Shown: positions 7,701-50,183, counted from the stretch's first letter. The stretch is DNA of 63,860 bases from Candidatus Nanoarchaeia archaeon (GCA_035289005.1 DATDYN010000017.1:1-63860), one strand, 5' to 3'. A program made the numbers and translations. The notes: a model not told the origin generated them from the sequence alone.

Positions 7701-7991
7701 CCTGACAAGTTCGGCATTTATTGTGTACTTTCCGCTCTTGTCTACGAAGAAAGTTATCCCGTTAGCCATCAGCTTACCTTCAGGATCGATGACCTCTATA
7801 GTGTAATCTGCAGTGTCTTCCGGAAGAAGCAGCTGCACCATATCCCCTATGATATAATCGTTCTTGTCAGTGCGCACTGAGCCTGTATCTATGACTGCGA
7901 AGCCTGTCATCCCTATTATGCCGAGCATGCCTGTGGCAAGTATAATCGCGATTATTCCTGCAGCGATCACTTCAAGGGTTGGGTCTTTCAT
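1719..7991 (-). CDS. Giant (2090 aa) doubly membrane-anchored surface protein with parallel beta-helix repeat modules; adhesin-like
   Basis: Uninterrupted ORF with an N-terminal TM (VIAAGIIAIILATGMLGIIGMTGFAVI) and an acidic linker. Three blocks of beta-helix-type repeats are very rich in N-x-S/T. Two module starts are near-identical (QLVCSNSALCEYQNITSALDGEN / EQVCSNASACEYASITSALDGEN). Two related ~75-aa units are present (INWTPQSSQNSISYYLSYSHDSGTSW / IAWKNQSSQTAMSYFLRYSTDGDFW). There is a D/C-rich motif DKDGDRYF..CNDNN..IYPGATERCDEFDDDCDGIIDEGG, a second TM (IGLTVLKWVGGIALILIAAALLIAGV) and a cytoplasmic tail. The start ATG overlaps the upstream stop (ATGA). Confidence 0.85.
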   Translation of the reverse strand: MKDPTLEVIAAGIIAIILATGMLGIIGMTGFAVIDTGSVRTDKNDYIIGDMVQLLLPEDTADYTIEVIDPEGKLMANGITFFVDKSGKYTINAELVRNGERENLKAYFNVEDSSGKNGGDEEMLKEETNAIEPAENTDSEIPEEPTQESQDESGNYPEQEDTNASGSEEANDVQNSSAALRTPTNASDNSAAEGVFSGEKEARKEERVLNARVEFTKDKMRPRESIDRRGNREDIIEMEEQGVKITIEGANPSLLNMITYENGTITAPSVDITEATISIPHTGIPAIGTLPQLYIKEDDETEFRPAVEYKNNNETFNKIEITPTHYVFSVEHFTQYFINSSGGDYTSLEACLLAQNNTANTCQVNQAINENFTTASSYYFLSHIVQLTEDGVNNTYIDFNNSAFYGDDGVNDVGIDFVGGASDDSVHNSTIKNIGFVNVAFPLMMSSISGVGQSFSLSNFNASSMTGSSTIFYLNSHNSTVKDINIFDGTILGVSITNAGDSNFSKIMINNISTYGISLSSGVSNDVFSFINISNINLVDGTSYGLHFANDGGNDNVTNCSFSYINGTGLYFLNVNSTVKNNIFENNTLEGLRLIHNVGGRVDIYNNTFRYNDHEASKFLASYSRTNVSGTLMNGGNPVVLNSALGGAITISANDTDVSALFDGVSNFSRWSVNAPTAGLPIRTIYVQMGYGTSCATAGAAYGGSCYGYQDDYWVANGGSNYTINPAYVTNQTISVMQGDVNPPYVRNAKQKNNGDILVQTTGFSLNISGNTFIDKTYELGDSVRFISDLAGTNAVLWLNNYYYNANMTGQDSSLNYCREGIGNFLASAVTFSKGVGECGPINITAPSNGQTFLRNSTVQINWTPQSSQNSISYYLSYSHDSGTSWTNIATVSAANYSWNIASLPAENDYLIRIIPFDSTANATENRSRSVFTINPINQLVCSNSALCEYQNITSALDGENSTGKNITLTDNDRTYTILKAESYNISNPRGIILNASNITLNCNSSIIIGAGFADSKGISAENVNNASIQYCNVQKYNYGIFLNNSNESRMITNNVSNDTIGMYAISSYQLNFTNNTVTQASQYGIFLESAHNSFVKNNTMNNMTGSANSAFIIINGTTNTTISGNSIKNAQASGLLLNNSNQDIVANNTLNNTRGIRITASDRNNITGNAIESTYSGYDDLSVDSSSSGNNTVWLNRFYSLGVNNSGTNTAFCIAQGGENRGNFYAAALNASYMLNALNDCGAANITFPTINTNHTTQIRIAWKNQSSQTAMSYFLRYSTDGDFWTDIGSTTNQHYTWTVNALPESNNYRLLLGAYDSSYNATNDTSDLFGIDNTAPSLTLLNQTMSDNAKITPSNPARAGSNITIRANITDVISGISDVRLTVWQTTRSAGSIIINGQTRLLDGNSNNGTWEMNFTANDNLADMGEINYTVYVNDTANNQLTFDANFSIVDNEQVCSNASACEYASITSALDGENNTAITITLIDANKKYTFAREDKYRISPSGMIPAISMNASNQTIDCANSEISGTNTGTGIFSRQRNTSSVQNCVFRDFSVSLNFTNSSSNTVKDSRFLSSTNEIYLFLINDSLFSNINLSDSAGDSLLVYNSSNITFKDMKITNSSMRGINLISSYWLRFYDINSSANVREGLLVNLSSDRMIIENSSFTGSSSRDNVRIDGLNTNISGSSFSNISSGRQDLFISSIAESTNVWANNFLSGGVNNSGTASSFCVNNTGNYYNQDINLSYRVIGSCGNLSEPYDDKDGDRYFTIYDCNDNNFEIYPGATERCDEFDDDCDGIIDEGGVCAAKSFSTGGSSGGGGAGFTQSSAFTQDLAQNPEVILSLNARMEFSINNEQHYMTLEKVYFNKVRITVRSEPQTFELRINESKEIDYGNDGSADLRLTLKEIRGSQAVLNVEPLGKKTDETPQAAPEVTETPIPDAGQMAPSEEKPSIIPESVRNAATAAGRIGLTVLKWVGGIALILIAAALLIAGVRYSVSFTSKISEVEQYLKQARESGMTDEQIKQALISAGWEEAIVAELLKGQKHISETAPEEKIDKASAEKETSYETPNQKPLESGSDKNAPWTEQKINR

Positions 7992-23597: not shown

Positions 23598-23816
23598 ATG
23601 GCTACCACTATTCAGATAAGCTCCGAGCTGCAGACAGAGCTTTCCAAGCGCAAATTCACCGAGAGAGAAACCTACGAAGAAATCATCTGGGACTTAGTTG
23701 AAGACACCAAAGAGCTGAATGAAGAGACCAAGAAAGAATTAGCTGAATCCCGCGCTGAGATCAAGAAAGGCAAATTCTTCACTTTTGAACAAGTGAAGAA
23801 GGACGCAGAATTGTGA
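23598..23816 (+). CDS. Type II antitoxin (RelB/ParD-like, 72 aa)
   Basis: Small acidic protein whose stop overlaps the toxin start (GTGATG context). Position and size fit a type II TA pair. Confidence 0.6.
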   Translation: MATTIQISSELQTELSKRKFTERETYEEIIWDLVEDTKELNEETKKELAESRAEIKKGKFFTFEQVKKDAEL

Positions 23817-24064
23817 TGTATTCAGTCATCTTCTCAGACAAATCCCGAAAACAATTCCTGAAGCTAGAGAAAGGCGTGCAGGAGCGCATTGTCTGCGTCC
23901 TGGAAAGGATCAAGCTCAGGCCTGAAGCGTTCATCACAAAACTTGTCGGAGATGAAGGCTATAAGTTCAGGGTTGTGGATTATAGGATAATCCTTGATAT
24001 CGACAAAGGCAGGTTATTGATTCTTGTGATCAAGATCAGGCATAGGAAGAATGTCTACGATTGA
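23813..24064 (+). CDS. RelE/ParE-family toxin (83 aa)
   Basis: MYSVIFSDKSRKQFLKLEKGVQERIVCVLERI...GYKFRVVDYRIILDIDKGRLLILVIKIRHRKNVY matches the RelE/StbE pattern. Confidence 0.75.
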   Translation: MMYSVIFSDKSRKQFLKLEKGVQERIVCVLERIKLRPEAFITKLVGDEGYKFRVVDYRIILDIDKGRLLILVIKIRHRKNVYD

Positions 24065-24435: not shown

Positions 24436-24531
24436 GGCGGTGTGGCCAAACGGCTAAGGCATTCGGCTGCAAAGTGCAGAATATCGCATGTCAGTTCCCG
24501 AAGATCCTGGGTTCAAATCCCAGCACCGCCT
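24436..24531 (+). tRNA. tRNA-Cys(GCA) with a ~24-nt canonical (37/38) intron
   Basis: Acceptor GGCGGTG/CACCGCC, discriminator U (a tRNA-Cys identity element), anticodon stem TTCGG/CCGAA, loop CTGCAA|intron|C with the intron pairing to the anticodon (CTGCA..TGCAG). T-arm CTGGG-TTCAAAT-CCCAG. TATA-like AAAGTATATG at 24401-10. Confidence 0.8.
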
Positions 24532-25335: not shown

Positions 25336-26847
25336 CTAAATGCCATAGTCTGTGAATAATATCCTGTAAGGATTCTTGTCAATGCCATAGCCGTATTTTA
25401 TCTTCATCATCTCATCAACAGTTTCAAGGTAGGTCATCGTCATAGGCCTTAAGGGCACGCATGCGGACATATTGCCCAATATCGCGAATCTCTCATTCTC
25501 AAACAAAGGCTTTCGCGTATCGATGAATCCTCTGTCATGGGTGTAGTTCGGCTCGTAAGCCCGCTTAAACAGCAGGAGATAGTATCCTTGAGCAAGATAA
25601 GAATCAACAGTCGCAGGCCAGGGAGCTATCTCCGCAGTCCTTCCTTTATAGTTCAGGAACACCCATTCATTGGATTTTAGCGCGCAGGAATCAATCCCTA
25701 GCTCGTTTGTTTTCCTAAGAGCTTCATCGTAGAGCTCCCCTTTCAAGCCGAAAGGGAGCAGCGCAACGCAGAATGATATTGACAGTGCGAATATGATGAT
25801 CACTATCCTTTTAGCGTGCTTCTCAGTCATCACCAATTTCATCCCTAAAACCATTGATTCTCGCGGCTTCAGCGCTTCCGCAGCGAAGAAGACTAAGGGT
25901 ATTGTCAGCACGAAGAGATAGCGGTCGAATTTCATGGGTGTTGTGATGTATGTGAACACTGTCAGAATAGCTACTGAGACCATGATCAGCCCGATCTTAT
26001 AAGTTCTCAGGAATTCAATAAGGCGTTTCAATGAGAAAATCTTAGTATCTCTTATCTGTTGCCTTAATGATGCCATTGAGAAAGTTATTCCAAGAATAGT
26101 CAGGGGCAGCAGGATGTTGGCGCTCTCGAGGAAGTGCATGATGCTTGGAGCCATATGGATGTAAGACCTTAATTTGATGTTCTGCGCATAACTGTCAGCG
26201 ATGCTTGTGAGAGGATTCCCTGTGAAGAGATAGTTCGCAATCAGCCAGGGAGAGACTGTCAGTGCCGCAATGCCGGCATTCTTCATTATCTTCTCAATCT
26301 TTCCATGGAACAGCAGCAGCGCAACAAAAGGCATTATAGTATATTTCGCAAGGAATGCCAGCCCCAGAAACAGTCCGGATATCTCTTTTGGTCTGCTCTC
26401 AATAATCTCCGTAATGAAAAGTTCAATCAGCGCGAGCATCAGAAGCTCTGTGCCCGCGAAAGTGGCGAACATGAGGACGAAAGCGTTAAGGCTCAGCCCA
26501 TACATTATCTTCCTGTCAATCCTGCAGGCGTCAGCCATCCGTATGGTGGAATAAAGGAATAATACGGAGACTGAGAGGATAGTCAGGATCGCTGCCGCTT
26601 CTCTGCCAAGTGCCCCGAATATGAAGAACAGGACAGAAATAAGTGGGGGGCGCAGTATCTCAAGGTATTGTCCATTGCCAGCCCAATACTCCGCGTTCAT
26701 CTGGTAGCTGATGAAATCCCAGGAAAGATGGGAGAAGTGTTGTGCGATGAAATACGAAGCTGATAGTAAGAACAATGCAGCTATAATCCTGTTCTCAGAG
26801 ATCAAGGCCTTTATCCTTAATATCTTAGAATTCATCAGATCCTTCAT
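25336..26847 (-). CDS. Polytopic GT-C-like membrane protein with C-terminal soluble domain
   Basis: 503 aa with roughly 11-12 TM segments and then a ~130-aa tail. It is the last gene of the minus-strand glycosylation operon, and its architecture matches the two upstream STT3-like paralogues. Confidence 0.4.
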   Translation of the reverse strand: MKDLMNSKILRIKALISENRIIAALFLLSASYFIAQHFSHLSWDFISYQMNAEYWAGNGQYLEILRPPLISVLFFIFGALGREAAAILTILSVSVLFLYSTIRMADACRIDRKIMYGLSLNAFVLMFATFAGTELLMLALIELFITEIIESRPKEISGLFLGLAFLAKYTIMPFVALLLFHGKIEKIMKNAGIAALTVSPWLIANYLFTGNPLTSIADSYAQNIKLRSYIHMAPSIMHFLESANILLPLTILGITFSMASLRQQIRDTKIFSLKRLIEFLRTYKIGLIMVSVAILTVFTYITTPMKFDRYLFVLTIPLVFFAAEALKPRESMVLGMKLVMTEKHAKRIVIIIFALSISFCVALLPFGLKGELYDEALRKTNELGIDSCALKSNEWVFLNYKGRTAEIAPWPATVDSYLAQGYYLLLFKRAYEPNYTHDRGFIDTRKPLFENERFAILGNMSACVPLRPMTMTYLETVDEMMKIKYGYGIDKNPYRILFTDYGI

Positions 26848-26871
26848 TTATTGTTCATGCGTATGATCGCA

Positions 26872-27531
26872 TCAATCCGTCTCTGTCATATTCAGCTCTC
26901 TGAATAGTTTTTCTTTTCCCGTGAATCCTTCAAACTTATTATTGTTTATCACTATGGTGGGTGTGCTCTCGACAGAGTATCGCGTCTTAAGAGTATCCAA
27001 CGCCGGATTCCCTATATTGACATCGAAAGAGTACACATTGAATTTCGGGTTCTTCTTATGCACATAAGTCAGGACATGGCCTTGCTCTTCGCAGTCAGCG
27101 CAGTCCCCTTCATTGGAATAAAAATATATCACCAGGTCATAAGTAAGATTGCATTCCTTCTTTGCCTTGTTCAGGAACAGCCAATGCCTCAGCTCAAGCA
27201 GGGAGTAATACTCTTTCAGGTTAACTACCCTTTCATCATCTTTTCCCAATTGGGATTCCATGAATGTCAGCTTAGATCCGAGATTTCCAAGATTGATCGC
27301 CATCTCTGTGCTGTTGACATAATCGCAAGGGCTTTCAGACATCAGCAGATATTGTATCTCATTGCCCATAGTGCTCATCTTTATCTCCTGTTCAAGATTG
27401 TCAACGCTCGCGAGTTTCTTGTTGTTATTGTAGGATCCCAGCATTATCCCTAATATGAAGATGAGTGTTGTTATCGCGAAAGCCGCAAGATAGGCAGAGA
27501 ACTGCAGTTTTTTCCTCTCCATGAAAGTCAT
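26872..27531 (-). CDS. Membrane-anchored thioredoxin-fold protein (CxxC)
   Basis: N-terminal TM, then VIYFYSNEGDCADCEEQGHVL (CADC) and ...ESTPTIVINN (cis-Pro-like). The start overlaps the GT2 stop (ATGA). Confidence 0.5.
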   Translation of the reverse strand: MTFMERKKLQFSAYLAAFAITTLIFILGIMLGSYNNNKKLASVDNLEQEIKMSTMGNEIQYLLMSESPCDYVNSTEMAINLGNLGSKLTFMESQLGKDDERVVNLKEYYSLLELRHWLFLNKAKKECNLTYDLVIYFYSNEGDCADCEEQGHVLTYVHKKNPKFNVYSFDVNIGNPALDTLKTRYSVESTPTIVINNNKFEGFTGKEKLFRELNMTETD

Positions 27532-28760
27532 TGTTTACCCCAGTATACTGTGCGCTTTGCCACCCTATGGGCTATTGCAGATGCCCAGCAAACTGAATAT
27601 ATCATCCAGTATATCATGAAGAATGAGAGCGCAGACAATGCCCATGGCTGTTTCTCTTTGGAGTATTCTCTCGCGAATAAAAGGATTACGACCGCTATGG
27701 CTATCGCTATCAATGGGATTATCAGCAATGGCCCTGTATTTATGAAGAACGTATCAAAATCATACTGGAACCATGTGCTGATATCGAAGCCAATCAGATA
27801 CCAATTTACAAGGTTCTGCGCAAACGTGCTTCCTAACCGCGCCATAGAATAGCTGAAAGCGCCTATGCCTAGTATTATCGATATGATCGATATCGGGAGT
27901 ATGAACATCCCGAGATTGCCGTAAGAAGGCTTTATCATGAACCTGTAAGCGATTATGTTGTCGATGAACCCTTTGAACCAGCGCAGCCTTTGAGTATATA
28001 CTTTCTTTAGGCCGTGCACAGGATCAGTGTAGACATTAGCGTCAATCACGCTTTCTATCACGAACTTCTTGCTCTCTATCCTCAATGCTATCTCGATATC
28101 CTCAGTAAGCGTCTCGGTGTTATATCCTCCGTAAGTGTCAAAGAACCATCTCTTGTAGAGTGTGAACGGTCCTGGAGTTATAGGGACTCCGCCCAGGTAA
28201 GAGAAAGACTTGCGGATGAACAGCGCGGAGAGGAATTCAGCTGCCTGTATCCTGCTCAGTATCCCTTTAGGCTGCCATATCTTGACTGAAGGCACTACGC
28301 ACATCACTCTTTTCTGCTCAAAATACGCGATCATCTTCTTGAGCGCGTCAGGCCTGACGAAAGAATCAGCGTCCAATGCTCCGACAATCTCTCCGGAACA
28401 TCTTGCCAAGCCATAGTTGAGAGTATCTGCTTTTCCAGTATTCTTTTTAGTGAATACCTTGACACCTTTGGATTCGTAAGTCTTTGCGATCTTCAATGTG
28501 TCATCTCTTGATCCGTCATCAATGATCATTATCTCGAGAAGCTCTTTAGGATAATCCAGACTGAACAATGATTCTACAGTCTTTCTTAGTGAGCGCTCTT
28601 CATTGAAAGCAGGCACTATTATGCTCACTTTAGGGAAATATTTAGGCTTAGGATGCTTCAGAGTGCGAATATTCTGGAAGAACACTATCATGAGCAGCGT
28701 TGAGGAGAAGAGGCCGAAATAGCATAAGGTATATATGAGGATCTCTTTCATTATAAGCAT
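27528..28760 (-). CDS. Family 2 glycosyltransferase, membrane-integrated, processive type
   Basis: VSIIVPAFNEE, IIDDGSRDDT, GALDADS, TEDIEIALR and QRLRWFKG (the Q-x-x-RW motif of cellulose/chitin/hyaluronan-synthase-like enzymes), plus N- and C-terminal TM helices. Confidence 0.85.
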   Translation of the reverse strand: MLIMKEILIYTLCYFGLFSSTLLMIVFFQNIRTLKHPKPKYFPKVSIIVPAFNEERSLRKTVESLFSLDYPKELLEIMIIDDGSRDDTLKIAKTYESKGVKVFTKKNTGKADTLNYGLARCSGEIVGALDADSFVRPDALKKMIAYFEQKRVMCVVPSVKIWQPKGILSRIQAAEFLSALFIRKSFSYLGGVPITPGPFTLYKRWFFDTYGGYNTETLTEDIEIALRIESKKFVIESVIDANVYTDPVHGLKKVYTQRLRWFKGFIDNIIAYRFMIKPSYGNLGMFILPISIISIILGIGAFSYSMARLGSTFAQNLVNWYLIGFDISTWFQYDFDTFFINTGPLLIIPLIAIAIAVVILLFAREYSKEKQPWALSALSFFMIYWMIYSVCWASAIAHRVAKRTVYWGKQ

Positions 28761-28801
28761 GTCATTCTCTCCTTGCCAACTTTAATTGAGGGATCCGGAG
28801 A

Positions 28802-30316
28802 TTATTCATCCCGTCGTAATACTTTCCAGATCTCTATGTTCTCCTTAGCATAAACGTTTTTAAATGTTTCGTTGTTGCGCAGGAGACGCAGCAGCCCCTG
28901 ATCATCTTTATTCCAGATTTCTCCCAGTCGCATATCTGGGGTTATCAGTAGGTAGTCTATCTCATTGAGATCCAGCTTTTTTTGCGCTTCCTCAATCGCG
29001 GATTCATAGAATACTTCTTCCGCCGCTTCATTCTTGCGCCCATAGGCCTGTGTCGTTGAATGATAGCTGTCTATGAAAGCCTTTCTGGTAGAGAACCACT
29101 CGATCCAATAGCCATTGTCCGGATTAGAGAGTATAACTCGTTCCTCATTAGAGTTATTCTTGAGCCAGGAAAGCGCCGTGGCAAGGTCTTCCGAAGGCGC
29201 AGCATCTACGAGTCTGCTGCCATAGCTTAGTGTAGAGAATATTATTCCGCAGGCTATAAGCACATATGTGAGTGTTCGGATTATGTCAAACCTCCAGTCA
29301 AAAGAGGTTACTTTCACAATCCCCTGGCCTGCAAGGATTGCCAATGGGAAGACCAGCAATGACTGAGCGTGCGATCCTGTGACGAGCGCGAGCATGATGA
29401 ATCCCGCTATAGAAGCATAAATTGGATAATCCTTCTTTTTCTCTTTCCAGGAAGAGAAGAATCCTATTATCGCCAGCATCAGGAAAAACACGCTGAAGCC
29501 ATGCATGCTTCCGAAATCAGAGAGTGATTCCCCTATGAAATCTCTGATAGGCATCTCGTAATTATCCGTTAAAGGAGAAGGATGCACACCATATATCACT
29601 GTCAGGAATATGATCGATGCTATCGAAAAAGTTCTCTTCTCTAGCGATATCAGCGCGCTGAACAGCAGTCCTATGATGATGAGCGCAAGGAATATCGCGG
29701 AGAATTGGGAAGCGATCCCGAAAGCCAGCAATGAAGAGATCCTGCTTATCCTGTTGTCGCTGAAGAACAAGGTGAATCCAAGCAGCGTCAGAGCTATAGC
29801 CATCGAATCAGGAGAGGATATGAGCGCTAGCGAGAGGAAAGCTGGCGATGTCACAAGCATTGCCGCAGCGGTGATCGAATGCAGCAATGTCTTTGTCTTT
29901 CTCGCGATGAAGAAAAACGAAGCCAAGGAGGTCATTGCGCTCAGTAATGGGAGTGTCACAGATGCCCAAAAGCTCCCTGTCAATCTGGTAATCCATCCAA
30001 GAGCGTAATGATATGGGGTCAGTGCGATGATTCTAGAGCCATGGATCATGTTGTCTATTCCGCTATAATCCCCTTCAGAAATGCTTTCTGCCATCCTCGC
30101 ATGCAGGTAGGGCTGACTGCCAGCAAGCAGGGTGTTCTCAGCGCTTAATTTCGCGCTTATGAGCGCAGCTAGAAGTACTGCCGCGGCAAGGCAGAGCAGA
30201 GAGGCGCTGAAGATCGCCGTGTATCTTTCTTTCTTCTCATTCTTCAGCGCTTTTTCTGGTCCGTCTCCATTATTCTTGATCGCTCTCTTGCGCTTTTTTC
30301 CATTCTTAGCATTCAT
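28802..30316 (-). CDS. STT3/AglB-like GT-C membrane protein, paralogue 2 (degenerate catalytic motif)
   Basis: Start chosen at the Met overlapping the upstream stop (TGATG). Multi-TM core, then C-terminal ALSWLKNNSNEERVILSNPDNGYWIEWFSTRKAFID. This aligns with the AglB '...WL..NT....V.SWWDYGyWI....R....D' region, but WWDYG is replaced by NPDNG. Confidence 0.45.
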   Translation of the reverse strand: MNAKNGKKRKRAIKNNGDGPEKALKNEKKERYTAIFSASLLCLAAAVLLAALISAKLSAENTLLAGSQPYLHARMAESISEGDYSGIDNMIHGSRIIALTPYHYALGWITRLTGSFWASVTLPLLSAMTSLASFFFIARKTKTLLHSITAAAMLVTSPAFLSLALISSPDSMAIALTLLGFTLFFSDNRISRISSLLAFGIASQFSAIFLALIIIGLLFSALISLEKRTFSIASIIFLTVIYGVHPSPLTDNYEMPIRDFIGESLSDFGSMHGFSVFFLMLAIIGFFSSWKEKKKDYPIYASIAGFIMLALVTGSHAQSLLVFPLAILAGQGIVKVTSFDWRFDIIRTLTYVLIACGIIFSTLSYGSRLVDAAPSEDLATALSWLKNNSNEERVILSNPDNGYWIEWFSTRKAFIDSYHSTTQAYGRKNEAAEEVFYESAIEEAQKKLDLNEIDYLLITPDMRLGEIWNKDDQGLLRLLRNNETFKNVYAKENIEIWKVLRRDE

Positions 30317-31812
30317 CACGCGAACCTGCATTTTACCTCGTAGATCCTGATATCTTTCTTGTATCTTTCTTTGAAACATTCTTCATCATTGAATGATTGG
30401 GCCAATCCGCTCCCGAACTGCTCTTTTGCTTTTGAGGTTATCATCACATGGGTTACATTGTATCTTGTCAGAAGCCTCAATGATTCAGTCTTGAACTGTG
30501 TTGAGAATATCCTGCTGATATCCTCAGCCCTTTGCGCAACATCAGCCTGAAGGAGAGCATTGTCATCCGCCACATTCTTTCTCTCCGCGACGGCTGAGAT
30601 TGCGTTTCCTTCTTCAACAGTCGCCAGTATCACAGAATCTTTCTCAGTATTCTCTCTTATCCATGAGAGAGCAGTGTATTCCTGGTCGCTTAGCGCCGCA
30701 TTCGAAGATTCTCTCGCTATCATCCAGGAAGGGATTGCCAGGCTTAAGACGCAGACAAGTCCAAGGATGACCATGAGAGGTGTCTTTAATCTTGCGAAAT
30801 TAGTTTTTTCAATATAAGAATACAATTCATTATAGAATAGCGAGAAGATTATCGCGAAAGATATTCCTGCTACAGCAAGAGCGGCAGTGACCTCTATGAT
30901 TCTCAGCCAGGCAAGAAGGACCGCAGATAATGCGAGAGCCATGATTGGATAAGACCGGCGGTCTTTCCTCTTGAAGATATGGTCGAATATCGAGTAGATT
31001 CCATACGCCGCAGGCAGCAGCCCTGTCAGGTAAAGCATCAACGGCAGTGTGAGTGGAAGTGTCAAGGCTATCGCTACAGTCCCGTTCCACATTATTCCTG
31101 CTCCGTGCATCGCGAACGCGTCCTTGAACACAAGGAACAGCGCCCACATTATGAAGAATAGGGAGAATATCATAGTTTCAATCTCTGCCCTGTCGTGAAT
31201 TACATCCTCAAGCCTCAGCAGCATCGAATAGAAGAAAAAGCAGGGGATGAGGATTGCTGTGAGCGGAGTGGTCAGCATAGAGGCAAGCAAAGCTGTCAGG
31301 AACCAATAGATGAAATTGCTCTCGTGAATCCTTATGAAGCAGTAGACAATCAGGAATAGCAGAGGAATGAATAATGATAATGGAGATAAGGTGTTTGTTG
31401 TAGAGCTTATGAACGCTGGGATTAATCCTGAGATCCCTGCGCTGAAAAGCGCCGCAATCCGGTTCTTTGTCAACTGATACGCTATTAGATAGGAGATTAC
31501 AGCTATTGACGCTGATAATATGTTCGGCAGTATCTTTCCTGCAATTGCCAGAGGCATGAATAACCCTATGAATGCTAAAAGATAATAGAATAACGGCATG
31601 AATACCTGTTCTTTGCCGCCATAGCTGTAAGGATCATGGTATGCCGGCAGCCCTGTCTCAAGTATGCTTCTGGCTTCCCGCAATGAGAAATAGGCATCGC
31701 TTCCAGTGAACCCTTCGTTCTGGAACGCATAGTAGAGCCTTATCAGCAATGGCAATGCCACTAATATGGCCAGAACGATAAATGCTCGTCTCGCGGTTAT
31801 TGTCGACCCCAT
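30316..31812 (-). CDS. STT3/AglB-like GT-C membrane protein, paralogue 1 (degenerate catalytic motif)
   Basis: First loop FTGSDAYFSLREARSILETG (like the D-x-x-Y-x-x-R loop-1 motif of STT3/AglB as I recall it), ~11-13 TM segments, and C-terminal YTALSWIRENTEKDSVILATVEEGNAISAVAERKNVADD (WWDYG position = TVEEG). Confidence 0.5.
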   Translation of the reverse strand: MGSTITARRAFIVLAILVALPLLIRLYYAFQNEGFTGSDAYFSLREARSILETGLPAYHDPYSYGGKEQVFMPLFYYLLAFIGLFMPLAIAGKILPNILSASIAVISYLIAYQLTKNRIAALFSAGISGLIPAFISSTTNTLSPLSLFIPLLFLIVYCFIRIHESNFIYWFLTALLASMLTTPLTAILIPCFFFYSMLLRLEDVIHDRAEIETMIFSLFFIMWALFLVFKDAFAMHGAGIMWNGTVAIALTLPLTLPLMLYLTGLLPAAYGIYSIFDHIFKRKDRRSYPIMALALSAVLLAWLRIIEVTAALAVAGISFAIIFSLFYNELYSYIEKTNFARLKTPLMVILGLVCVLSLAIPSWMIARESSNAALSDQEYTALSWIRENTEKDSVILATVEEGNAISAVAERKNVADDNALLQADVAQRAEDISRIFSTQFKTESLRLLTRYNVTHVMITSKAKEQFGSGLAQSFNDEECFKERYKKDIRIYEVKCRFA

Positions 31813-31913
31813 AAGGTGGTTGTAGTGGAGTTCTTTTTTATATTTTTGGAAAGCTATTTAAACGCCTGAAACCATATCATTTTCTTGCAAGAAAGCGGCC
31901 TTTAGGGGTGTTC

Positions 31914-38118: not shown

Positions 38119-38778
38119 ATGAACTATTCAGCAAATTGGAAGATCGCAATCATCCTTGTTTTCGGAATAATATTCTCCCTAATTTCTACATTATTCTTTC
38201 TGAATCGTACGGATATGTCAGGAATAATCATCACAGGGATGGCGACTAATTCCTCTCAGGGCATAGTCAATCTCACTCTTGTCTCAAGCATAGCTATCGC
38301 GCTCTCAGTCACCGCAGTGGATTTCGGTACAGGCTATGTCACTATGGGTTGTTCGAAATGCAGTCTTCATACCCCTAGCGTCATCGAGAATGAGACTTGT
38401 TGTTCAGGATTCAGCTCTCCTGCAAACGGGCTTGTGCTTGAGAACGTAGGCAATCTTGCGGTGAATATCACGATGCAGGTTTTCGATAACGCGACCACTA
38501 TGATCGGCGGCGGAGATCTTGATTATGGAGGCCAAAACATGCCTGAATTCGAGGTTAATGTCACTGAGAAAGAGCTTGGAGCCTGCCCTAGCGGAGGATT
38601 GTATCCTGCCTGCAATAACACCTGGTGTCCTGTGAACGCTACGACTCTCACTTGGTGCGTCTCTTTGCTTCCTGACCAGAGCAAGGATGAGATAACCACA
38701 AATATACGCATAACAATCCCTGAGAATTCAAGGAAAGGGGAGCTGAACACCACTTTTATCTTTGTTGGCAACGCGTAA
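38119..38778 (+). CDS. N-terminally anchored beta-sandwich surface protein, paralogue A
   Basis: 219 aa. TM IAIILVFGIIFSLISTLFFL, then ITGMATNSSQGIVNLTL...VTAVDFGTGYV...LVLENVGNLAVNITMQV (ASH/PapD-like pattern), several Cys residues and many N-x-S/T. Paralogous to 39142-39798. Confidence 0.6.
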   Translation: MNYSANWKIAIILVFGIIFSLISTLFFLNRTDMSGIIITGMATNSSQGIVNLTLVSSIAIALSVTAVDFGTGYVTMGCSKCSLHTPSVIENETCCSGFSSPANGLVLENVGNLAVNITMQVFDNATTMIGGGDLDYGGQNMPEFEVNVTEKELGACPSGGLYPACNNTWCPVNATTLTWCVSLLPDQSKDEITTNIRITIPENSRKGELNTTFIFVGNA

Positions 38779-38920: not shown

Positions 38921-39145
38921 ATGAGAGAAGATATTTCGAACAAGACCGTGGTCATACTTCTGATATTGACTATTCTTATTGCTGTGAGCGGGACTCTTCT
39001 TGTCCTTGATAAAGCGGAACAGGTCAAGTCAGGGCAGAGTTCTGAAAGGCTGACTGCCCAATCATATCCTATAGGCACTGTTAAGGTTTCGGTGACCTCT
39101 CCTCCTGCACAAGGCAACCCCGCTGATCCAAGGGGTTCTCAATGA
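38921..39145 (+). CDS. Small N-terminally anchored protein (74 aa)
   Basis: MREDISNKTVVILLILTILIAVSGTLLVL resembles the N-termini of both neighbours. The stop overlaps the next start (ATGA). Confidence 0.45.
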   Translation: MREDISNKTVVILLILTILIAVSGTLLVLDKAEQVKSGQSSERLTAQSYPIGTVKVSVTSPPAQGNPADPRGSQ

Positions 39146-39798
39146 GTGAGATGACCAATCGCACTATCGCTGTGCTTCTCATATTTGGGATAGTCTTCTC
39201 TCTTGTTGCCACTCTTGTAAGCCTTAACCGGTTGTCGAATATTGATCGTTTCGGCATTACTGGATTGGTCACTAATACCACTTCCGGGTATGTCAATGCT
39301 TCAGTCACTTCAAGAGTCGCTGTTAATCTTACTCTTGCCGCAGTTGATTTCGGAACAGGGTATGTGGGGATGGGATGCAATAATTGCACGATTGATACTC
39401 AAGGTGGAAGCAATGGCGCTGCCTGTTGTGCTAATTTCCTGACTACTCAGAAAGGGCTTGTGATAGAGAACACAGGCAACACTTATCTCCAGATCGATGT
39501 CAATTTCAGCAAGAACGCGAGCGAGTTCATAGGCGGCACAGTCTCTGTCGCTAAATTCATGATGCTTGTTGTCCAGAACGATTCCGCGAGCTGCCATACT
39601 TTAGGAGCGACATGGTCTAGCGGCTATGCGAATGTGCCGATATATAACACTGGCGAGTCTGCCGGTCTTGTCTGCAATGTCCTTTCTCCGAATGCGGCGA
39701 ATGACAGCATAAGGCTGCATATCAATATCACGATCCCTGATAACGCCCCTTCAGGCGATAAGAACGCTTCTGTCTGGGTGACAGGCACAGGATTGTGA
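39142..39798 (+). CDS. N-terminally anchored beta-sandwich surface protein, paralogue B
   Basis: 218 aa. TIAVLLIFGIVFSLVATLVSL, ITGLVTNTTSGYVNASV...LAAVDFGTGYV...LVIENTGNTYLQIDVNF. A T8 run follows the stop. Confidence 0.6.
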   Translation: MSEMTNRTIAVLLIFGIVFSLVATLVSLNRLSNIDRFGITGLVTNTTSGYVNASVTSRVAVNLTLAAVDFGTGYVGMGCNNCTIDTQGGSNGAACCANFLTTQKGLVIENTGNTYLQIDVNFSKNASEFIGGTVSVAKFMMLVVQNDSASCHTLGATWSSGYANVPIYNTGESAGLVCNVLSPNAANDSIRLHINITIPDNAPSGDKNASVWVTGTGL

Positions 39799-40179: not shown

Positions 40180-42630
40180 ATGCTGTTTCTATCTATGGGA
40201 CGGGGCAGAAGTGATGGTTTGGCTGCTGAGACAGCATTCACTTATGGTATTGCCCTGATTTTGGTGATTATCTCTCTTGTCTATTTCCGTTCTTTCCGCT
40301 CTGAGCTACCGAAGTTCATCGCAAGTTTCGCAGGGATATTGCTTCTTTCTCTTGGATGGGCGCTTTTCTGCGCAAGAAGCGGCAAGCGCATGATCAACAA
40401 GAATCCTTTGATGATCCCGATACTGTTATTCCTGTCTGCAAGCGCTTTGTCCTTGCTGAATTCTGATTATCCTTTCTTCAGCCTGATTGCGCTTGCAATC
40501 CTAGCAAGCCACATATTTCTGTTCTTTCTCGTAACTTCTGTCGTGAATAGTGAATATCTTGAAGAGATATTCCTGAAAGCGGTATTTCTCATAATACTTG
40601 CGGCGTCAGGATACTCTTTCCTTCAGCGCTTCTTCCCCAGCGACATCTTGCTTCCTTTTAGCGAGAGGATAAGCTCAACATTCCTCAATTCAGACTTTTT
40701 CGCGGCATTCATCATGATGTCTTTGCCTTTAGCGATATATTCCCTGTTCAAGAAAGATGCATTTAATGAAATGGCGGGATTTGCGTTGGCCTTATCAGCC
40801 ATTCTTATCTCTGTTCTCGGCATGCTTTGCACTTTAAGCCGTTCTGCAGCTCTAGGGGTAGCAGTCTCTCTCTCTTTCATGGCAGTCATTGACAGGAAAT
40901 GCTTTTGTCAGCAAAAAGCAAAGCTCGCTATCCTCTCATTAGCAGTATTTGCGTTACTGATATTCAGCTTCACTGCAGGCTCTTCTTATTGCACCTATTT
41001 CGGGAACGGCATTTCAGAATCAGTTGAGTACAGGATCAGTGAGACATTAACCAATCTTCCCGGAAAGCAGCCAGGCATCTATCAAGATGTTAGTGGCCTT
41101 TCTCAGGATATCAATTGGTCTTCTCAGGATATTGAAGGTTCTTCCCTATATCCTTCTCAGATGTCAGTTATCAGCTATGTGCAGAGCATCATTCTCGGAG
41201 AGAATCTCTCATTCAATAAGAAGACTGAAGCTATCATCTTCATACTTCCGATAGATCCAGCGCGCAAGATATATTATTCTTCAGCAGTGCTCATGATCGC
41301 TGACCATCCTCTGATAGGTAATGGGTTGGGGGCTTTTGGCCTGGCAGTCCCTGATTATTCCTCGGATTATATGCTTTATCCGGAGTATTACCAGCCAAGG
41401 AAGATACATGCGCACAATGAATTCCTTCAAGTGATGGCAGAGACAGGTCTTTTCGGGATTATGGCTTTCTTGGCGATCATCATCATATTCTTTAGGATGA
41501 TGCTTGTTCATATCCTTAATCTAGGAAACTCTGGCGTTCTCAGGGGCAGCGCCGCTTCACTCCTGAAACTGCAGCAGCGCAAGTCTTTCATGATAGCTGT
41601 GAGCGCTTCAATACTTGCGATCCTTGTCCAGAACATATTCAGCAATAGCTTAAGGTATCCCACGACGCAATACTTATTCTGGGTTGTGTTAGGCATAGGC
41701 GTAGCCGCAGCAATGCGCTTCAGGAAAGAGGGAGAAAGCGCAACTGAAGATAAGCGTTCTCCGATCAGGAGCATTGTTCAAAAGGGAGACGTTAGCAGGA
41801 TCAGCGCTCCAGTATTCGTGATACTCTCAATCCTTTCAGCATTGGTCATTCTGGTAGTGATGTTCTTATCATTCAGGGCGGTAGAGTCAGACCTCATCGC
41901 TTCTGATGCTGGCGACGCGGATGATTACTGGCGCGCGATCATGGCAAATCCTCTGAATCTCGATCCTTACTGGGGGCTGATGCTTGAAGGGTATAAGCGC
42001 AGGGATTATGCTTTGATATATTCCACTCTTGACAGATTAGGCGCGGTGATTCCCGGGCATTTACTTGTCAATTATCATCATGGCAAAGCATTGATGGAGC
42101 AGGGAAGGTATTCTGAAGCAAGGCAGGAATTCTTATCAGTCAAGAATCCTGTATTGAGAGATTATAATGTCGCGCTGTCTTATTATCGGGAGAATGATCC
42201 TGTCTCAGCATTGCTCTGGACAAGAGAAGCAATGCGAGAAGGGATGAACAACTCTCACGTCCATTCATTGCTTGCTGAGCTCCTGATAACTTCCGGAGAC
42301 AATGCAGGTGCAAGGCATGAGTTTGAGATCGCGTTGGCCAAAGACGAGTCTAATGTGCGGGCGGCTTATTATCTCGGGGCGCTCTCACTGTATGAAGGGA
42401 ATGCTACTGGCGCATCAGGAATATTTAATCACATAATCTTGTCTTTTTCCTATTATGACTCTTTGTCTGATGATCAAAAGGAGGTATTGCGCAATATGAT
42501 CCATCTCGACAGCGCTAATAATCTCTCTTTAGGGGGGAATTTCCCAGTATACAAAGAACTGTTTGAATTTGAGGCAGGGCAAAGGTTTTCTGCAGACATC
42601 TCTGCCGCCGCGAAATCCTTTATAAGATGA
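40180..42630 (+). CDS. O-antigen ligase (Wzy_C)-like polytopic membrane protein fused to C-terminal TPR repeats
   Basis: About 12 TM segments with the loop motif KIHAHNEFLQVMAETGLFGIMAFLAIIIIF. The C-terminal ~250 aa contain TPR-like repeats (GKALMEQGRYSEARQEF; LAELLITSGDNAGARHEFEIALAKDESN). Confidence 0.7.
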   Translation: MLFLSMGRGRSDGLAAETAFTYGIALILVIISLVYFRSFRSELPKFIASFAGILLLSLGWALFCARSGKRMINKNPLMIPILLFLSASALSLLNSDYPFFSLIALAILASHIFLFFLVTSVVNSEYLEEIFLKAVFLIILAASGYSFLQRFFPSDILLPFSERISSTFLNSDFFAAFIMMSLPLAIYSLFKKDAFNEMAGFALALSAILISVLGMLCTLSRSAALGVAVSLSFMAVIDRKCFCQQKAKLAILSLAVFALLIFSFTAGSSYCTYFGNGISESVEYRISETLTNLPGKQPGIYQDVSGLSQDINWSSQDIEGSSLYPSQMSVISYVQSIILGENLSFNKKTEAIIFILPIDPARKIYYSSAVLMIADHPLIGNGLGAFGLAVPDYSSDYMLYPEYYQPRKIHAHNEFLQVMAETGLFGIMAFLAIIIIFFRMMLVHILNLGNSGVLRGSAASLLKLQQRKSFMIAVSASILAILVQNIFSNSLRYPTTQYLFWVVLGIGVAAAMRFRKEGESATEDKRSPIRSIVQKGDVSRISAPVFVILSILSALVILVVMFLSFRAVESDLIASDAGDADDYWRAIMANPLNLDPYWGLMLEGYKRRDYALIYSTLDRLGAVIPGHLLVNYHHGKALMEQGRYSEARQEFLSVKNPVLRDYNVALSYYRENDPVSALLWTREAMREGMNNSHVHSLLAELLITSGDNAGARHEFEIALAKDESNVRAAYYLGALSLYEGNATGASGIFNHIILSFSYYDSLSDDQKEVLRNMIHLDSANNLSLGGNFPVYKELFEFEAGQRFSADISAAAKSFIR

Positions 42631-47567: not shown

Positions 47568-50183
47568 TCATTTCTCCTCTCTCACGAGAGCCGGAATATT
47601 CCTGTAATAGAGATACCAATCTGGCAGATTCGGCAGTTCGTTCAATGATGATGATTTTGCGTTCATCCTTATCCCTATCCCCAGCATGTCGAATGCTCCT
47701 GCGCAGGCCACATTGCCATTATCGAGCGTGAAACAGGCATTGTAACTGTTGCCTTTTGCTATGCTTATAGAGGTCACTCCCTGCAATGGCCTTATGCTTT
47801 TGGTCTTGATCTCGTCCTGGGTTGTGTCAATAGCAGCTACTGTTGTTGGTCGTTGATTATAAAAGTCAGTGGCGTAAGGTTTAGGATTGCCCTCTCCAGT
47901 GCCTAGCTGCCCATAACCATTATGACCCCAGCAGACTGCAGTCTTGTCAGTCTTTATCGCGCAGGAAGACTGCGCTCCTGCTGTCACGAAAGTGTATTTG
48001 TCCCCATTGCTCGCTATTTTAGTGGCATAAGGTCTGGCAATGGCCGTTGTTCCGTCTCCGATCTGGCCATACCTGTTAGCTCCCCAGCAGTATATCTCTC
48101 CTTCATTATTCTGATTCTTCAAAGCGCAGAAATGCGATATCCCTGCGGCGATCATCGTTATGCCTGTGATATCATTATTATTGGCGTCCTTGACATAGTG
48201 AGGTGTGAAATAGCTTTCATAAGTGCCTTTTACCTTGCCTTTATTATCGCCGAGTTCTCCAGTATAACCGCTGTCACTAGTCTCTCCAGATTTTTCTGTG
48301 ATTCCCCAGCAGGCAACTTTTCCTCCTTTGAGCGCGCAGAAAGTGCTAAAGCTTCCGACTATGGACTGGACTTCGGTCAATCCTTGCTTATTATTTCCCT
48401 GCACATCACCAATGTCATGCACTTTCAAAGGTTTTATATTTCCGCAGAGATTGTCTTTGCAAGCCACATTGCAAGGAGGCCAATAATCATGTGCGGTTGC
48501 ATTATACGCTGCAGCTGCTTTTAGTCCGTCTATATCTCCCGCAAGTCCAACCATATATCCTTGATAGCATGATTTCATAGCGTTCTGTATCTTTTCAGGG
48601 GTATCAGCGTCTGGAAACATCAGTTCTCCAGTCTCAGGAGATCTTGGCTTTACGTTCTTACTCATAAACTGTGTGAAAAGATCGGATTCAGGGCAGCCGT
48701 AGAATCCGTCTCCATTTGCTGTCCCTTCATCCGCTTCAAACCTGCAGTGGCTTGCGCCGAAGCATTCAACACCACCCTCAGGTCTTAAAATACAACCAAC
48801 CCAGTTAACGATGAATGCCAGATCCTTGATGTTTGTCTGCGGACCAAAACCTAAAAGAAGATTAGACGGCGCTGAGTAGTCTTTGCTGCTGACCTTCACA
48901 TTGATTCCAGACAGCAGGCTTTTCCCCCAGCACCACGCTTCATTATTGGTCATGAGAACGCAATTGCCGCCTATAGGGTTGGAGACGACATCACGCACTG
49001 TCTTTCCTGCGGGAAGAAGGGGGATATTTGAAGGAAGGATCCCGTCCGAAGTCCTATACGCGTCCTTTAGTTCAGCAGACATGCTGATGGTTGGAGAGCC
49101 GACATAATTATAGATATCATTCCCCCAGCATTTTAGCACGCCATTATCAATAGCGCAGGCGTTAGAATACCCTAATTTGACATTTGTCAGGCCATCAGCG
49201 ACTTTGTAATCGCACATGTTAGCCGCGCGCCAGTCGATCCATTGGTTATCGACGCAGCGAAGAGAGTTGATATTGCTCGCGAATTTTCCTCCGATACGGT
49301 TTCCGTTGAATATGACAGAATCGCATTGGCTTGCCTTATCATTGCCGTTCCAGGCTCTCGGATAGCCGCCGCATTGTGAAGTGTCAGGGACAGCTTCGAC
49401 CCATTTCCAGTTGCTGAAATTCTTTGGTTTAAGCTGCATCCATTGCAGTGTTGTGGGCACTGGAGGAGTTGAAGTCGCTGGGATGAGGGCTCTGCAGAAA
49501 TAGAATTTCCCAGAGGAATAGTGGCAGGTATTGGCAGTTGACGCGTTATTGCTTGTGCATCCGTTCACGGGCAGTTCAATTACTTCCTTGCATTTCAATC
49601 CTGGCTTGAATTCTTTCTCGCAGGAAGCTGTCTCGCAAGTTGTAGCGGGTTTGCAGTCTGCAGAGCATGTCTGTGGCGTCTCATCAGCGTTGCATGTTCC
49701 GTCGCCGCAGCTGATTGTGGGGGGAGGAGTCTCTCCAGTCACTGTGAAGCTGCCCTCTTCCCATCTGCACTGCCAGCCGCTGCCTACTGTCTTCGGATCG
49801 CAGATTCTGAGCCTGTAGTATACTTTTCCGTCGCTTCCAGGCATTGTCTGCGCTTGTGTTATCGTGAAAGTCATTGTCCCTCTCTTCCATGAAGGATTGT
49901 TCGCTAAACTATCCCCCCCTGTCAGGAGAACGCTTCCTTTGGAGATCATGCTGCCTTGGTCGTTCTTCACCCGCACAAAGGCTTTCTTGAACACTGCTGT
50001 CTGGCCTGTCACTGTTATCGTTATAGTATTTGAGAACGCGCCATTTATGATAGGGATATCTGTCGTTGGGGCAGAGTAAGAGAACGCTTCACCTACTGGC
50101 TGGCAGCCTGACAGGATTGATGGAATTATCATAATAATTAAGGCCAGCAGAATAATGTTTATGTTCTCTCTTTTTTTCGCCAT
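47568..50183 (-). CDS. Secreted/lipobox RCC1-repeat (beta-propeller) protein
   Basis: N-terminal IIMIIPSILSGCQ (lipobox-like LSGC), Cys motif SCGDGTCNADETPQTCSADC, and RCC1-type repeats (CWGHNGYGQLGTG, CWGANRYGQIGDG, CWGNDIYNYVG, CWGITEKSG). Confidence 0.8.
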   Translation of the reverse strand: MAKKRENINIILLALIIMIIPSILSGCQPVGEAFSYSAPTTDIPIINGAFSNTITITVTGQTAVFKKAFVRVKNDQGSMISKGSVLLTGGDSLANNPSWKRGTMTFTITQAQTMPGSDGKVYYRLRICDPKTVGSGWQCRWEEGSFTVTGETPPPTISCGDGTCNADETPQTCSADCKPATTCETASCEKEFKPGLKCKEVIELPVNGCTSNNASTANTCHYSSGKFYFCRALIPATSTPPVPTTLQWMQLKPKNFSNWKWVEAVPDTSQCGGYPRAWNGNDKASQCDSVIFNGNRIGGKFASNINSLRCVDNQWIDWRAANMCDYKVADGLTNVKLGYSNACAIDNGVLKCWGNDIYNYVGSPTISMSAELKDAYRTSDGILPSNIPLLPAGKTVRDVVSNPIGGNCVLMTNNEAWCWGKSLLSGINVKVSSKDYSAPSNLLLGFGPQTNIKDLAFIVNWVGCILRPEGGVECFGASHCRFEADEGTANGDGFYGCPESDLFTQFMSKNVKPRSPETGELMFPDADTPEKIQNAMKSCYQGYMVGLAGDIDGLKAAAAYNATAHDYWPPCNVACKDNLCGNIKPLKVHDIGDVQGNNKQGLTEVQSIVGSFSTFCALKGGKVACWGITEKSGETSDSGYTGELGDNKGKVKGTYESYFTPHYVKDANNNDITGITMIAAGISHFCALKNQNNEGEIYCWGANRYGQIGDGTTAIARPYATKIASNGDKYTFVTAGAQSSCAIKTDKTAVCWGHNGYGQLGTGEGNPKPYATDFYNQRPTTVAAIDTTQDEIKTKSIRPLQGVTSISIAKGNSYNACFTLDNGNVACAGAFDMLGIGIRMNAKSSSLNELPNLPDWYLYYRNIPALVREEK

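Follow-up and report, generated by a model that had tools for sequence, protein, structure and literature searches.

The locus discussed here lies at positions 25336-31812, on the minus strand of a 63,860-nucleotide (nt) stretch of DNA from Candidatus Nanoarchaeia archaeon (GCA_035289005.1 DATDYN010000017.1:1-63860), which is referred to below as the window. An earlier note, made from the sequence alone, had described it as a glycosylation operon with three paralogues of STT3/AglB that lack the WWDYG motif, and had asked whether these are highly divergent oligosaccharyltransferases (OSTs) or GT-C enzymes with a different acceptor. Two of the three, P1 and P2, are indeed relatives of STT3/AglB, they belong to families that have lost the OST motifs, and they are encoded as a conserved pair; the balance leans towards the second answer. 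The locus comprises five co-oriented open reading frames (ORFs), at the coordinates given in that note:

30316-31812, minus strand: P1, 498 aa, a short STT3-fold GT-C protein
28802-30316, minus strand: P2, 504 aa, a paralogue of P1, with its start at the ATG at 30316 as in the public gene call P0018
27528-28760, minus strand: GT2, 410 aa, a membrane-integrated glycosyltransferase of the synthase type
26872-27531, minus strand: thioredoxin-fold protein, 219 aa, membrane-anchored
25336-26847, minus strand: P5, 503 aa, a GT-C protein of the GT87/ArnT-like type

P1 and P2 are distant homologues of STT3/AglB with an STT3-type fold. Their families are homologous to each other over the full length (hhalign probability 100%, E 4e-58), and in single-sequence phmmer searches of the PDB both proteins retrieve STT3 chains only (E about 5e-4). 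With a P1 family profile built from 17 sequences, the best match in the PDB reaches E 7e-10, and all matches below E 0.02 are STT3, PglB or AglB, including the minimal C-terminal domains of the short AglBs of A. fulgidus (3VU0, 3VGP); profile positions 8-229 align to residues 20-262 of STT3A, which form the N-terminal membrane core, and a C-terminal block is aligned in addition. P1 consists of about 11 predicted transmembrane (TM) helices and an extracytoplasmic C-terminal domain of about 120 aa. When its AlphaFold (AF2) model (pLDDT 84, pTM 0.85) is searched with Foldseek, yeast and human STT3 are the best matches (E 2e-13, TM-score 0.75 normalised to the query), and the top 17 are all STT3/AglB/PglB, with TM-scores on the same normalisation of 0.60-0.75; the order of families is STT3, A. 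fulgidus AglB, PglB, and then DPY19 (E 7e-9), AftA and ArnT. The STT3 fold of P2 is taken from its full-length homology to the modelled P1. No tested member of either family reaches the threshold of the curated OST models (PF02516, AglB_core-like and TIGR04154): P1 scores 28 bits with TIGR04154 (cutoff 450), P2 scores 10.8 bits with PF02516, the STT3 family (threshold 24.5), and 15 family members yielded no match to PF02516 and a single one to AglB_core-like (E 0.016). Three of these 15 match PMT_2 weakly. No family model covering P1 or P2 was found in Pfam or NCBIfam, and a literature search yielded no account of STT3 pairs that lack WWDYG in DPANN archaea.

The proposal of three STT3 paralogues was rejected with respect to P5, which shows no demonstrable relation to P1 or P2 (hhalign probability 9% with the P1 family and 58% with the P2 family, neither of them significant) and is a different GT-C protein. 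Its profile matches no PDB sequence, and its AF2 model (pLDDT 85) finds ArnT as the best Foldseek match, at E 1e-4 and a query-normalised TM-score of 0.57, which is a generic GT-C match only. P5 passes the gathering threshold of PF09594, the GT87 family (31.8 bits, threshold 25, residues 67-262), the motif S-W43-D44-F..Y48..N51-A in its external loop 1 (EL1) is invariant, with D44 in all of 11 sequences, and its C-terminal domain contains conserved cysteines at C388 and C463. P5 is thus a GT87/ArnT-like GT-C protein. In related loci, the fifth position is occupied by a PMT_2/ALG10/GT22-like GT-C protein, often beside a small GT2 of 226-240 aa, or by nothing. The earlier note had envisaged that structure or profile comparison might place all three proteins firmly in a non-STT3 GT-C family; such a placement is found for P5 alone, and the STT3/AglB homology stands for P1 and P2.

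To our knowledge, the WWD motif that binds the sequon and the DxD/DxE metal site of external loop 2 (EL2) are needed by all known oligosaccharyltransferases. Conservation computed over 166 P1-family sequences and 46 P2 orthologues shows that neither family retains the aromatic WW pair or the DxE motif. HMMER pairs ALSWIRENTEKDSVILATVEEGNAISAVAERKNVADDN of P1 and the NPDNGYWI block of P2 with the WWDYG block of STT3, in agreement with the alignment previously drawn by hand, and the positions equivalent to WWDYG read TVEEG in P1 and NPDNG in P2, as had been reported. At these columns the P1 family has [STP]-[LPV]-[ED..]-[ED]-G, with G402 conserved in 98%, and the P2 family has S-H-Y-x-x-G-[FY]-W-I. 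Opposite the SYDNE of STT3 in EL2, P1 has T-L-S-P-L (T-x-N-x-x-S in the family), with no acid, and P2 has S-P-D-S-M; the Asp of the latter was considered as a remnant of DxE and rejected, being kept in only 2 of the 46 orthologues.

The acid of EL1 is the general catalytic residue of GT-C enzymes, and the GT-C enzymes that use polyprenol-monophosphate sugars (DPY19, PMT, ALG6, ArnT) need this acid but not the OST-type DxD metal site. EL1 of P1, D39-A-Y41-F-S-L-R45, aligns to D-P-Y-F-N-Y-R of STT3A with the catalytic-acid position kept, and across the family an acid (D/E) lies two or three residues ahead of the invariant Y41. In P2, Q-P-Y-L-H-A-R (S-Q68-P-Y) stands opposite D-P-[YW]-F-N-Y-R of STT3, and E or D occupies this position in 39 of the 46 orthologues; both EL1 readings had been made correctly in the earlier note. 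The EL5-like loop of P2 contains S266-D267-F-G (S-D-[LF]-G in the family, with the acid in 42/46). The external loop of P1 after TM7 is marked by K230, H236, G237 and W-Q-N-x-P, with no conserved acid, and a profile of P1 residues 196-378 (TM7-TM11) has no OST match in the PDB, hence no alignment to the EL5 Glu (TIXE/SVSE) or the pyrophosphate-binding Arg. Three P1 residues, E212, C479 and C495, are conserved in 100% of the family. E212 is predicted to lie close to where a TM helix ends on the cytoplasmic side. The terminal beta-hairpin of the model (strands 480-485 and 489-493) lies between C479 and C495, which are therefore likely to form a disulfide; P2 has no such pair, and none is conserved among its 46 orthologues.

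The P1 family is large. Its profile retrieves 661 representative clusters (50% identity) at E <= 1e-30 and 1343 at E <= 1e-10, and nearly all of the top 150 clusters are 475-540 aa long. A scan of species-representative genomes, with a 7-sequence P1 alignment as the query, returned 51 loci, almost all from metagenome-assembled genomes (MAGs) whose titles name Woesearchaeota, Nanoarchaeota or Nanoarchaeia; 'uncultured Methanosarcinales', the title of many third-party-assembled MAGs, was taken as a placeholder label. In a census by profile hidden Markov models, P2 directly follows P1 in 50 of the 50 loci with downstream sequence, mostly with overlapping or abutting stop and start codons, and the pair appears to be universal in the sampled Woesearchaeota. 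As it recurs in about 50 independent genomes, this arrangement is far beyond chance. Where the neighbours were read, the pair usually lies between radB/uS2 and an MBF1 gene, often near topoisomerase VI, and the same is true of this window. A tree computed for both families together resolves P1 and P2 as distinct clades (support 0.997-1.0), and their patristic distances are correlated (r 0.88 across 44 loci), with P2 evolving about 1.5 times faster than P1; judged from the tree, the duplication is old and the two genes are inherited as a unit. A more distant archaeal MAG, Dive96_bin3.463, encodes a tandem of two proteins that resemble P1 weakly (77 and 104 bits; locus L058, 4312-7141); in the tree they attach at the base of the 49-member P1 clade, outside it, which suggests that tandem STT3-like pairs exist beyond the core family.

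The genes that accompany the pair are more variable. Among the 40 loci with at least 4.5 kb of downstream sequence, 29 contain a thioredoxin-like gene, 27 a large GT2, at least 11 a third GT-C gene and eight a protein of about 700 aa with a thioredoxin-like region, and in seven the P1-P2 pair stands alone. The order P1-P2-GT2-thioredoxin, with overlapping or near-overlapping codons, is found in about 25 distinct genomes whose proteins share only 28-38% identity. A variant cluster follows P2 in eight loci (L008, L014-L016, L025, L039, L041 and L044), in which a thioredoxin-like protein of about 210 aa without CxxC precedes the protein of about 700 aa, whose thioredoxin-like region matches TraF weakly; some of these loci continue with a GT87-like or PMT_2-type GT-C protein (N-terminal WWDSGVY) and a small GT2 of 240 aa.

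Within the window, the five genes are arranged as in an operon, and the kind of short overlaps and small gaps described previously was seen. The stop of P1 and the start of P2 overlap in TGATG, given the P2 start at ATG 30316 (an alternative in-frame ATG upstream, at 30379, would give a protein of 525 aa), the stop of GT2 and the start of the thioredoxin-fold gene overlap in ATGA, and the remaining intergenic gaps are 41 nt (P2-GT2) and 24 nt. Two kinds of putative expression signal were recognised by reading the sequence:

31834-31862, minus strand: A/T-rich TATA-like elements TTTAAATA and AAAAATATAAAAAA, 22-50 nt upstream of the P1 ATG
28767-28772, minus strand: Shine-Dalgarno-like GGAGAG, 7-12 nt upstream of the GT2 ATG, inside the 41-nt P2-GT2 gap

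The TATA-like elements are located in a 95-nt divergent intergenic region common to P1 and radB, and the GGAGAG before GT2 would fit an internal cistron of a polycistronic mRNA. The locus is present in groundwater and soil DNA metagenomes only, and none of the RNA-seq runs searched for it contain it. The gene content of the window is archaeal (topoisomerase VI, RadB, uS2 and an MBF1-type helix-turn-helix protein), and the closest named homologues are from Candidatus Woesearchaeota, which belong to the DPANN archaea. On the plus strand, an 83-aa ParE-toxin-like ORF is encoded at 23813-24064 (Pfam E 5e-6). Between this gene and the MBF1 gene, in a stretch without a convincing ORF, Rfam recognises a tRNA at 24436-24531 (plus strand; 54.5 bits) that was missed by ARAGORN; it spans 96 nt, against 71 positions in the model, and thus probably includes an intron.

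The third gene of the operon encodes a synthase-type membrane GT2, as judged from its architecture (an N-terminal TM helix, a GT-A domain and C-terminal TM helices) and its motifs, and is a candidate processive enzyme. D82, D130-A-D132, T-E220-D221 and Q257-R-L-R260-W261, the last of which is the QRLRW already pointed out in the earlier note, are present; across 34 orthologues, D82, D130-x-D132, E220-D221 and Q257-x-x-R260-W261 vary little if at all. The protein matches the GT2 family of Pfam at E 3e-33 and TIGR03937 (PgaC_IcaA) at E 3e-44 over residues 32-402 of 410, with scores below the equivalog cutoffs (151.5 vs 422.3 bits for TIGR03937; 57.8 vs 550 bits for NodC). In the PDB, its profile matches BcsA (E 5e-36), chondroitin and hyaluronan synthases are also among the closest entries, and the crenarchaeal membrane mannosyltransferase PcManGT (6YV7) is found at E 2e-30. 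PcManGT acts in N-glycan synthesis.

The CADC-containing thioredoxin-fold protein, which had likewise been recognised within the operon, has a basic N-terminus, one N-terminal TM helix, a helical linker and a thioredoxin domain; because the TM helix follows a basic N-terminus, the domain is predicted to lie outside. Its residues include C144-A-D-C147, the cis-proline P191, C69 and C127. Single-sequence matches in Pfam are below threshold, and the family profile matches thioredoxins (4O32, 3UL3) at E about 9e-8 to 1e-7, with CxxC and l-P-t-i aligned. Among 33 orthologues, C69 is conserved in 100% and C127 in 96%. CxxC is found in about 20 of the 33 and was rejected as a universal feature of the cluster. 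On this pattern of residues, the protein is a conserved partner with an optional redox site, and the copy in this window has CADC.

Surface proteins encoded in the window are rich in N-x-S/T sequons, as the earlier note had stated. One of them, a beta-helix/NosD-like protein of 2090 aa (1719-7991, minus strand; 11.7% Asn), contains 95 sequons vs 45.7 expected from shuffles (z 9), and two pilin-like proteins of about 218 aa (38119-38778 and 39142-39798) have 11 sequons vs about 4 expected (z about 4); the cytoplasmic proteins of the window show no enrichment. The sequons of the 2090-aa protein are strong, if indirect, evidence of N-glycosylation; very probably, the organism modifies its surface proteins in this way and requires an OST. 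Neither the window nor the sequence flanking 58 related loci (about 0.8 Mb) contains a canonical AglB, no match to a WWDYG-coding DNA pattern was present in the window, and WWD.G in all ORFs of the 58 loci occurs only as the N-terminal EL1 WWDSGVY of PMT_2-like GT-C proteins, never in an OST C-terminal domain. Two further proteins of the window may be mentioned in this context. An RCC1-repeat (beta-propeller) protein of 871 aa (47568-50183, minus strand), whose N-terminus resembles a signal or lipobox sequence, differs from the other surface proteins in having fewer sequons than expected (3 vs 9.3, z -2.4). Just downstream of the two sequon-rich pilin-like proteins, which carry class-III-signal-like N-termini, an 816-aa protein with about 12 TM helices (40180-42630, plus strand) combines a Wzy_C (O-antigen ligase/PglL-type) domain with C-terminal TPR repeats, and this protein may function as a glycan ligase or, in the manner of an O-oligosaccharyltransferase, act on the pilins.

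A feasible model, to which we give roughly an even chance, is that P1 and P2 constitute a two-subunit STT3-derived glycosyltransferase, probably metal-independent, that belongs to a surface-glycan module, takes its donor from dolichol phosphate and serves an acceptor other than a sequon. The region would then be a cell-surface glycan-assembly operon conserved in Woesearchaeota, with a translationally coupled pair of shortened, STT3-derived GT-C membrane proteins, which arose by the old duplication, as its putative core. The two proteins would act together on the outer face of the membrane; both families keep the EL1 acid, and P2 keeps the Asp of its EL5-like loop. From the loss of the WWD motif and of the EL2 metal site, we infer a probably metal-independent reaction with a dolichol-phosphate-linked sugar or glycan, as in DPY19, PMT and ALG6, and an acceptor other than the sequon asparagine, which may be a glycan or another protein side chain. 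The PgaC/NodC-like GT2 would make, and probably export, a beta-linked oligo- or polysaccharide or a lipid-linked glycan that feeds the P1-P2 step, as a plausible donor or acceptor. The outward-facing thioredoxin domain may form or shuffle disulfides of ectodomains (C479-C495 of P1; C388 and C463 of P5) or may be a structural subunit, and P5 would be an add-on decorating enzyme that transfers a further sugar from a dolichol-phosphate sugar. Between a divergent OST and a GT-C enzyme with another acceptor, we lean towards the latter because the WWD and EL2 motifs are lost family-wide, the EL5-like loop of P1 contains no conserved acid and the curated OST models are not reached.

Several points weigh against this model. 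The donor, the acceptor and the formation of a complex are all features that we infer. In Euryarchaeota, AglBs with monophosphate donors retain both DxD and WWDxG; therefore, motif loss alone is no proof of a donor switch. Sequon-rich surface proteins are present, and neither the window nor the flanks of the 58 loci supply the canonical AglB that would modify them. The GT2 and thioredoxin-fold genes are missing from about a quarter to a third of the loci, so a functional link is not obligatory; the coupling to a polymer synthase proposed in the earlier note holds as a frequent neighbourhood (27/40) with a protein that has synthase motifs, but not as a rule, as the pair also occurs alone. Finally, the copies in this window depart from their families at conserved positions: P2 has Q68 at the EL1 acid position, shared by only 3 of the 46 orthologues, and P1 has G244 and V246 where the W-Q-N-x-P motif of the family has N (94%) and P (98%). 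One or both copies in this window could consequently be inactive, and the departures N244G and P246V in P1 and E68Q in P2 may reflect relaxed or altered function in this lineage.

These departures also bear on the alternative that P1, P2 or both are dead STT3-fold pseudoenzymes, serving as scaffold, lectin-like or lipid-carrier-binding subunits, for example for the GT2 synthase or for a real AglB. Most of the OST catalytic motifs are lost, the P2 of this window has lost its EL1 acid and the P1 its N-x-P, P2 evolves faster than P1, and none of the residues that the P1 family keeps without exception (E212 and the two cysteines) occupies a classical catalytic position of GT-C enzymes. However, most members of both families retain the EL1 acid, and most P2 orthologues the S-D-[LF]-G acid, which argues for chemistry at the outer face, and the occurrence of the pair without GT2 in seven loci implies that it is not merely an accessory of the synthase; we therefore regard this alternative as unlikely. 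It is more doubtful that the five genes are unrelated neighbours, the pair, the GT2-thioredoxin unit and P5 belonging to separate pathways and being merely co-located. The modules are separable, in that the pair can stand alone, the GT2 genes of some loci are found a few kb off on the opposite strand and the type of the fifth gene varies; nevertheless, the recurrence of the four-gene order at such low protein identity, together with the co-orientation, the gaps of no more than 41 nt and the two overlaps of the five genes in this window, makes mere co-location highly improbable.

The alternative that touches most directly on the question raised above is that P1 and P2, with the thioredoxin-fold protein as a third subunit, are the hetero-oligomeric, divergent OST for N-glycosylation in Woesearchaeota, which would recognise sequons without WWD. 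By sequence and fold, OST catalytic subunits are the closest relatives of P1 and P2; the pair appears to be universal in the lineage as sampled and lies among housekeeping genes; the strong sequon enrichment means that some OST very probably exists, and no canonical AglB was found in the window or in about 0.8 Mb of flanking sequence from relatives; and the CxxC thioredoxin partner may recall Ost3/Ost6/TUSC3/MagT1 of the eukaryotic OST. Against these stand the absence of WWD, of the EL2 DxD/DxE and, in P1, of any conserved EL5 acid, all invariant in every characterised OST, the failure of every tested member to reach a curated OST model, and a published passage that treats DPANN archaea as having AglB (PMC8993221, citing Nikolayev 2020). 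The pair is thus probably not the N-glycosylating OST of the organism, and we hold this version to be decidedly unlikely. It is tempting to speculate on a bolder version, in which P1, P2 and the thioredoxin-fold protein would form an archaeal hetero-oligomeric OST-like machine that transfers a dolichol-linked glycan, possibly a chain made and exported by GT2, en bloc to surface proteins, with WWD-independent recognition of the acceptor and a dedicated oxidoreductase subunit paralleling Ost3/6-TUSC3. We consider this quite unlikely; in its extreme form, the machine would possibly be the main protein-glycosylating enzyme of Woesearchaeota.

The model of a two-subunit transferase with a different acceptor thus remains the one that we prefer, and its interest extends beyond this locus. 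STT3/AglB/PglB are regarded as a family defined by their motifs and by a single function, and here a large sister family, with at least 661 clusters for P1 alone, has the STT3 fold but neither the sequon-binding nor the EL2 metal motif. If the pair is active, it would add to the OST fold a specificity for an acceptor or a donor that is new, and would illustrate the diversification of OST-like enzymes and their acquisition of subunits. As Woesearchaeota are considered dependent on contact with other cells, their surface glycans are of particular interest.

The accessory proteins of the operon each resemble a known system in part. Like Ost3/Ost6 of yeast and TUSC3/MagT1 of human, the thioredoxin-fold protein would be a membrane-bound, extracytoplasmic or lumenal CxxC thioredoxin fold that is genetically tied to an STT3-type protein. 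Its architecture is reversed, however, with an N-terminal TM helix and a C-terminal thioredoxin domain in place of an N-terminal thioredoxin domain and four C-terminal TM helices; CxxC is missing in about 40% of the orthologues, and no match to OST3_OST6 (PF04756-type) was found in Pfam, so that the likeness is one of analogy. GT2 shares the D, DxD, TED and QxxRW motifs and the N-terminal and C-terminal TM helices with PgaC/IcaA, NodC, BcsA and hyaluronan synthase, but it is accompanied by no PgaD, BcsB or other known partner and scores far under the equivalog cutoff, and non-processive enzymes with a minimal cellulose-synthase-like fold, such as PcManGT, also exist. P5 has the EL1 Asp (W-D-F) of the GT87 polyprenol-phosphate-mannose mannosyltransferases and of ArnT, passes the gathering score and is closest to ArnT in fold, whereas its match is weak (31.8 bits) and it carries an extra C-terminal domain of about 130 aa with conserved Cys.

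With the DPY19 C-mannosyltransferases and the PMT/TMTC O-mannosyltransferases, P1 and P2 share the STT3-like GT-C architecture, DPY19 being the next-best fold match after the OSTs. DPY19 and PMT rely on the EL1 acid without an OST-type metal site, and PMT1-PMT2 work as a heterodimer; the likeness is structural, the weak PMT_2 matches in three of 15 members being all that is seen at the sequence level. With AglB/STT3/PglB (CAZy GT66), and especially with the short AglB-S of A. fulgidus, P1 and P2 share a TM core of the STT3 type, followed by a small alpha/beta domain that is C-terminal and extracytoplasmic, the EL1 D-x-Y-F-x-x-R in the case of P1 and the block that surrounds WWDYG (..ALxWLxxNT....V..xxxxG..I....R....D). 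By contrast, P1 and P2 have about 500 aa and about 11 predicted TM helices where the known enzymes have 600-970 aa and 13, their WWDxG is replaced by x-x-[ED]-[ED]-G in P1 or H-Y-x-x-G-[FY]-W in P2, the DxD/DxE of EL2 is absent, and they are always encoded as a diverged pair. P1 and P2 form a large new subfamily within the known STT3/GT-C kind and not a categorically new system.

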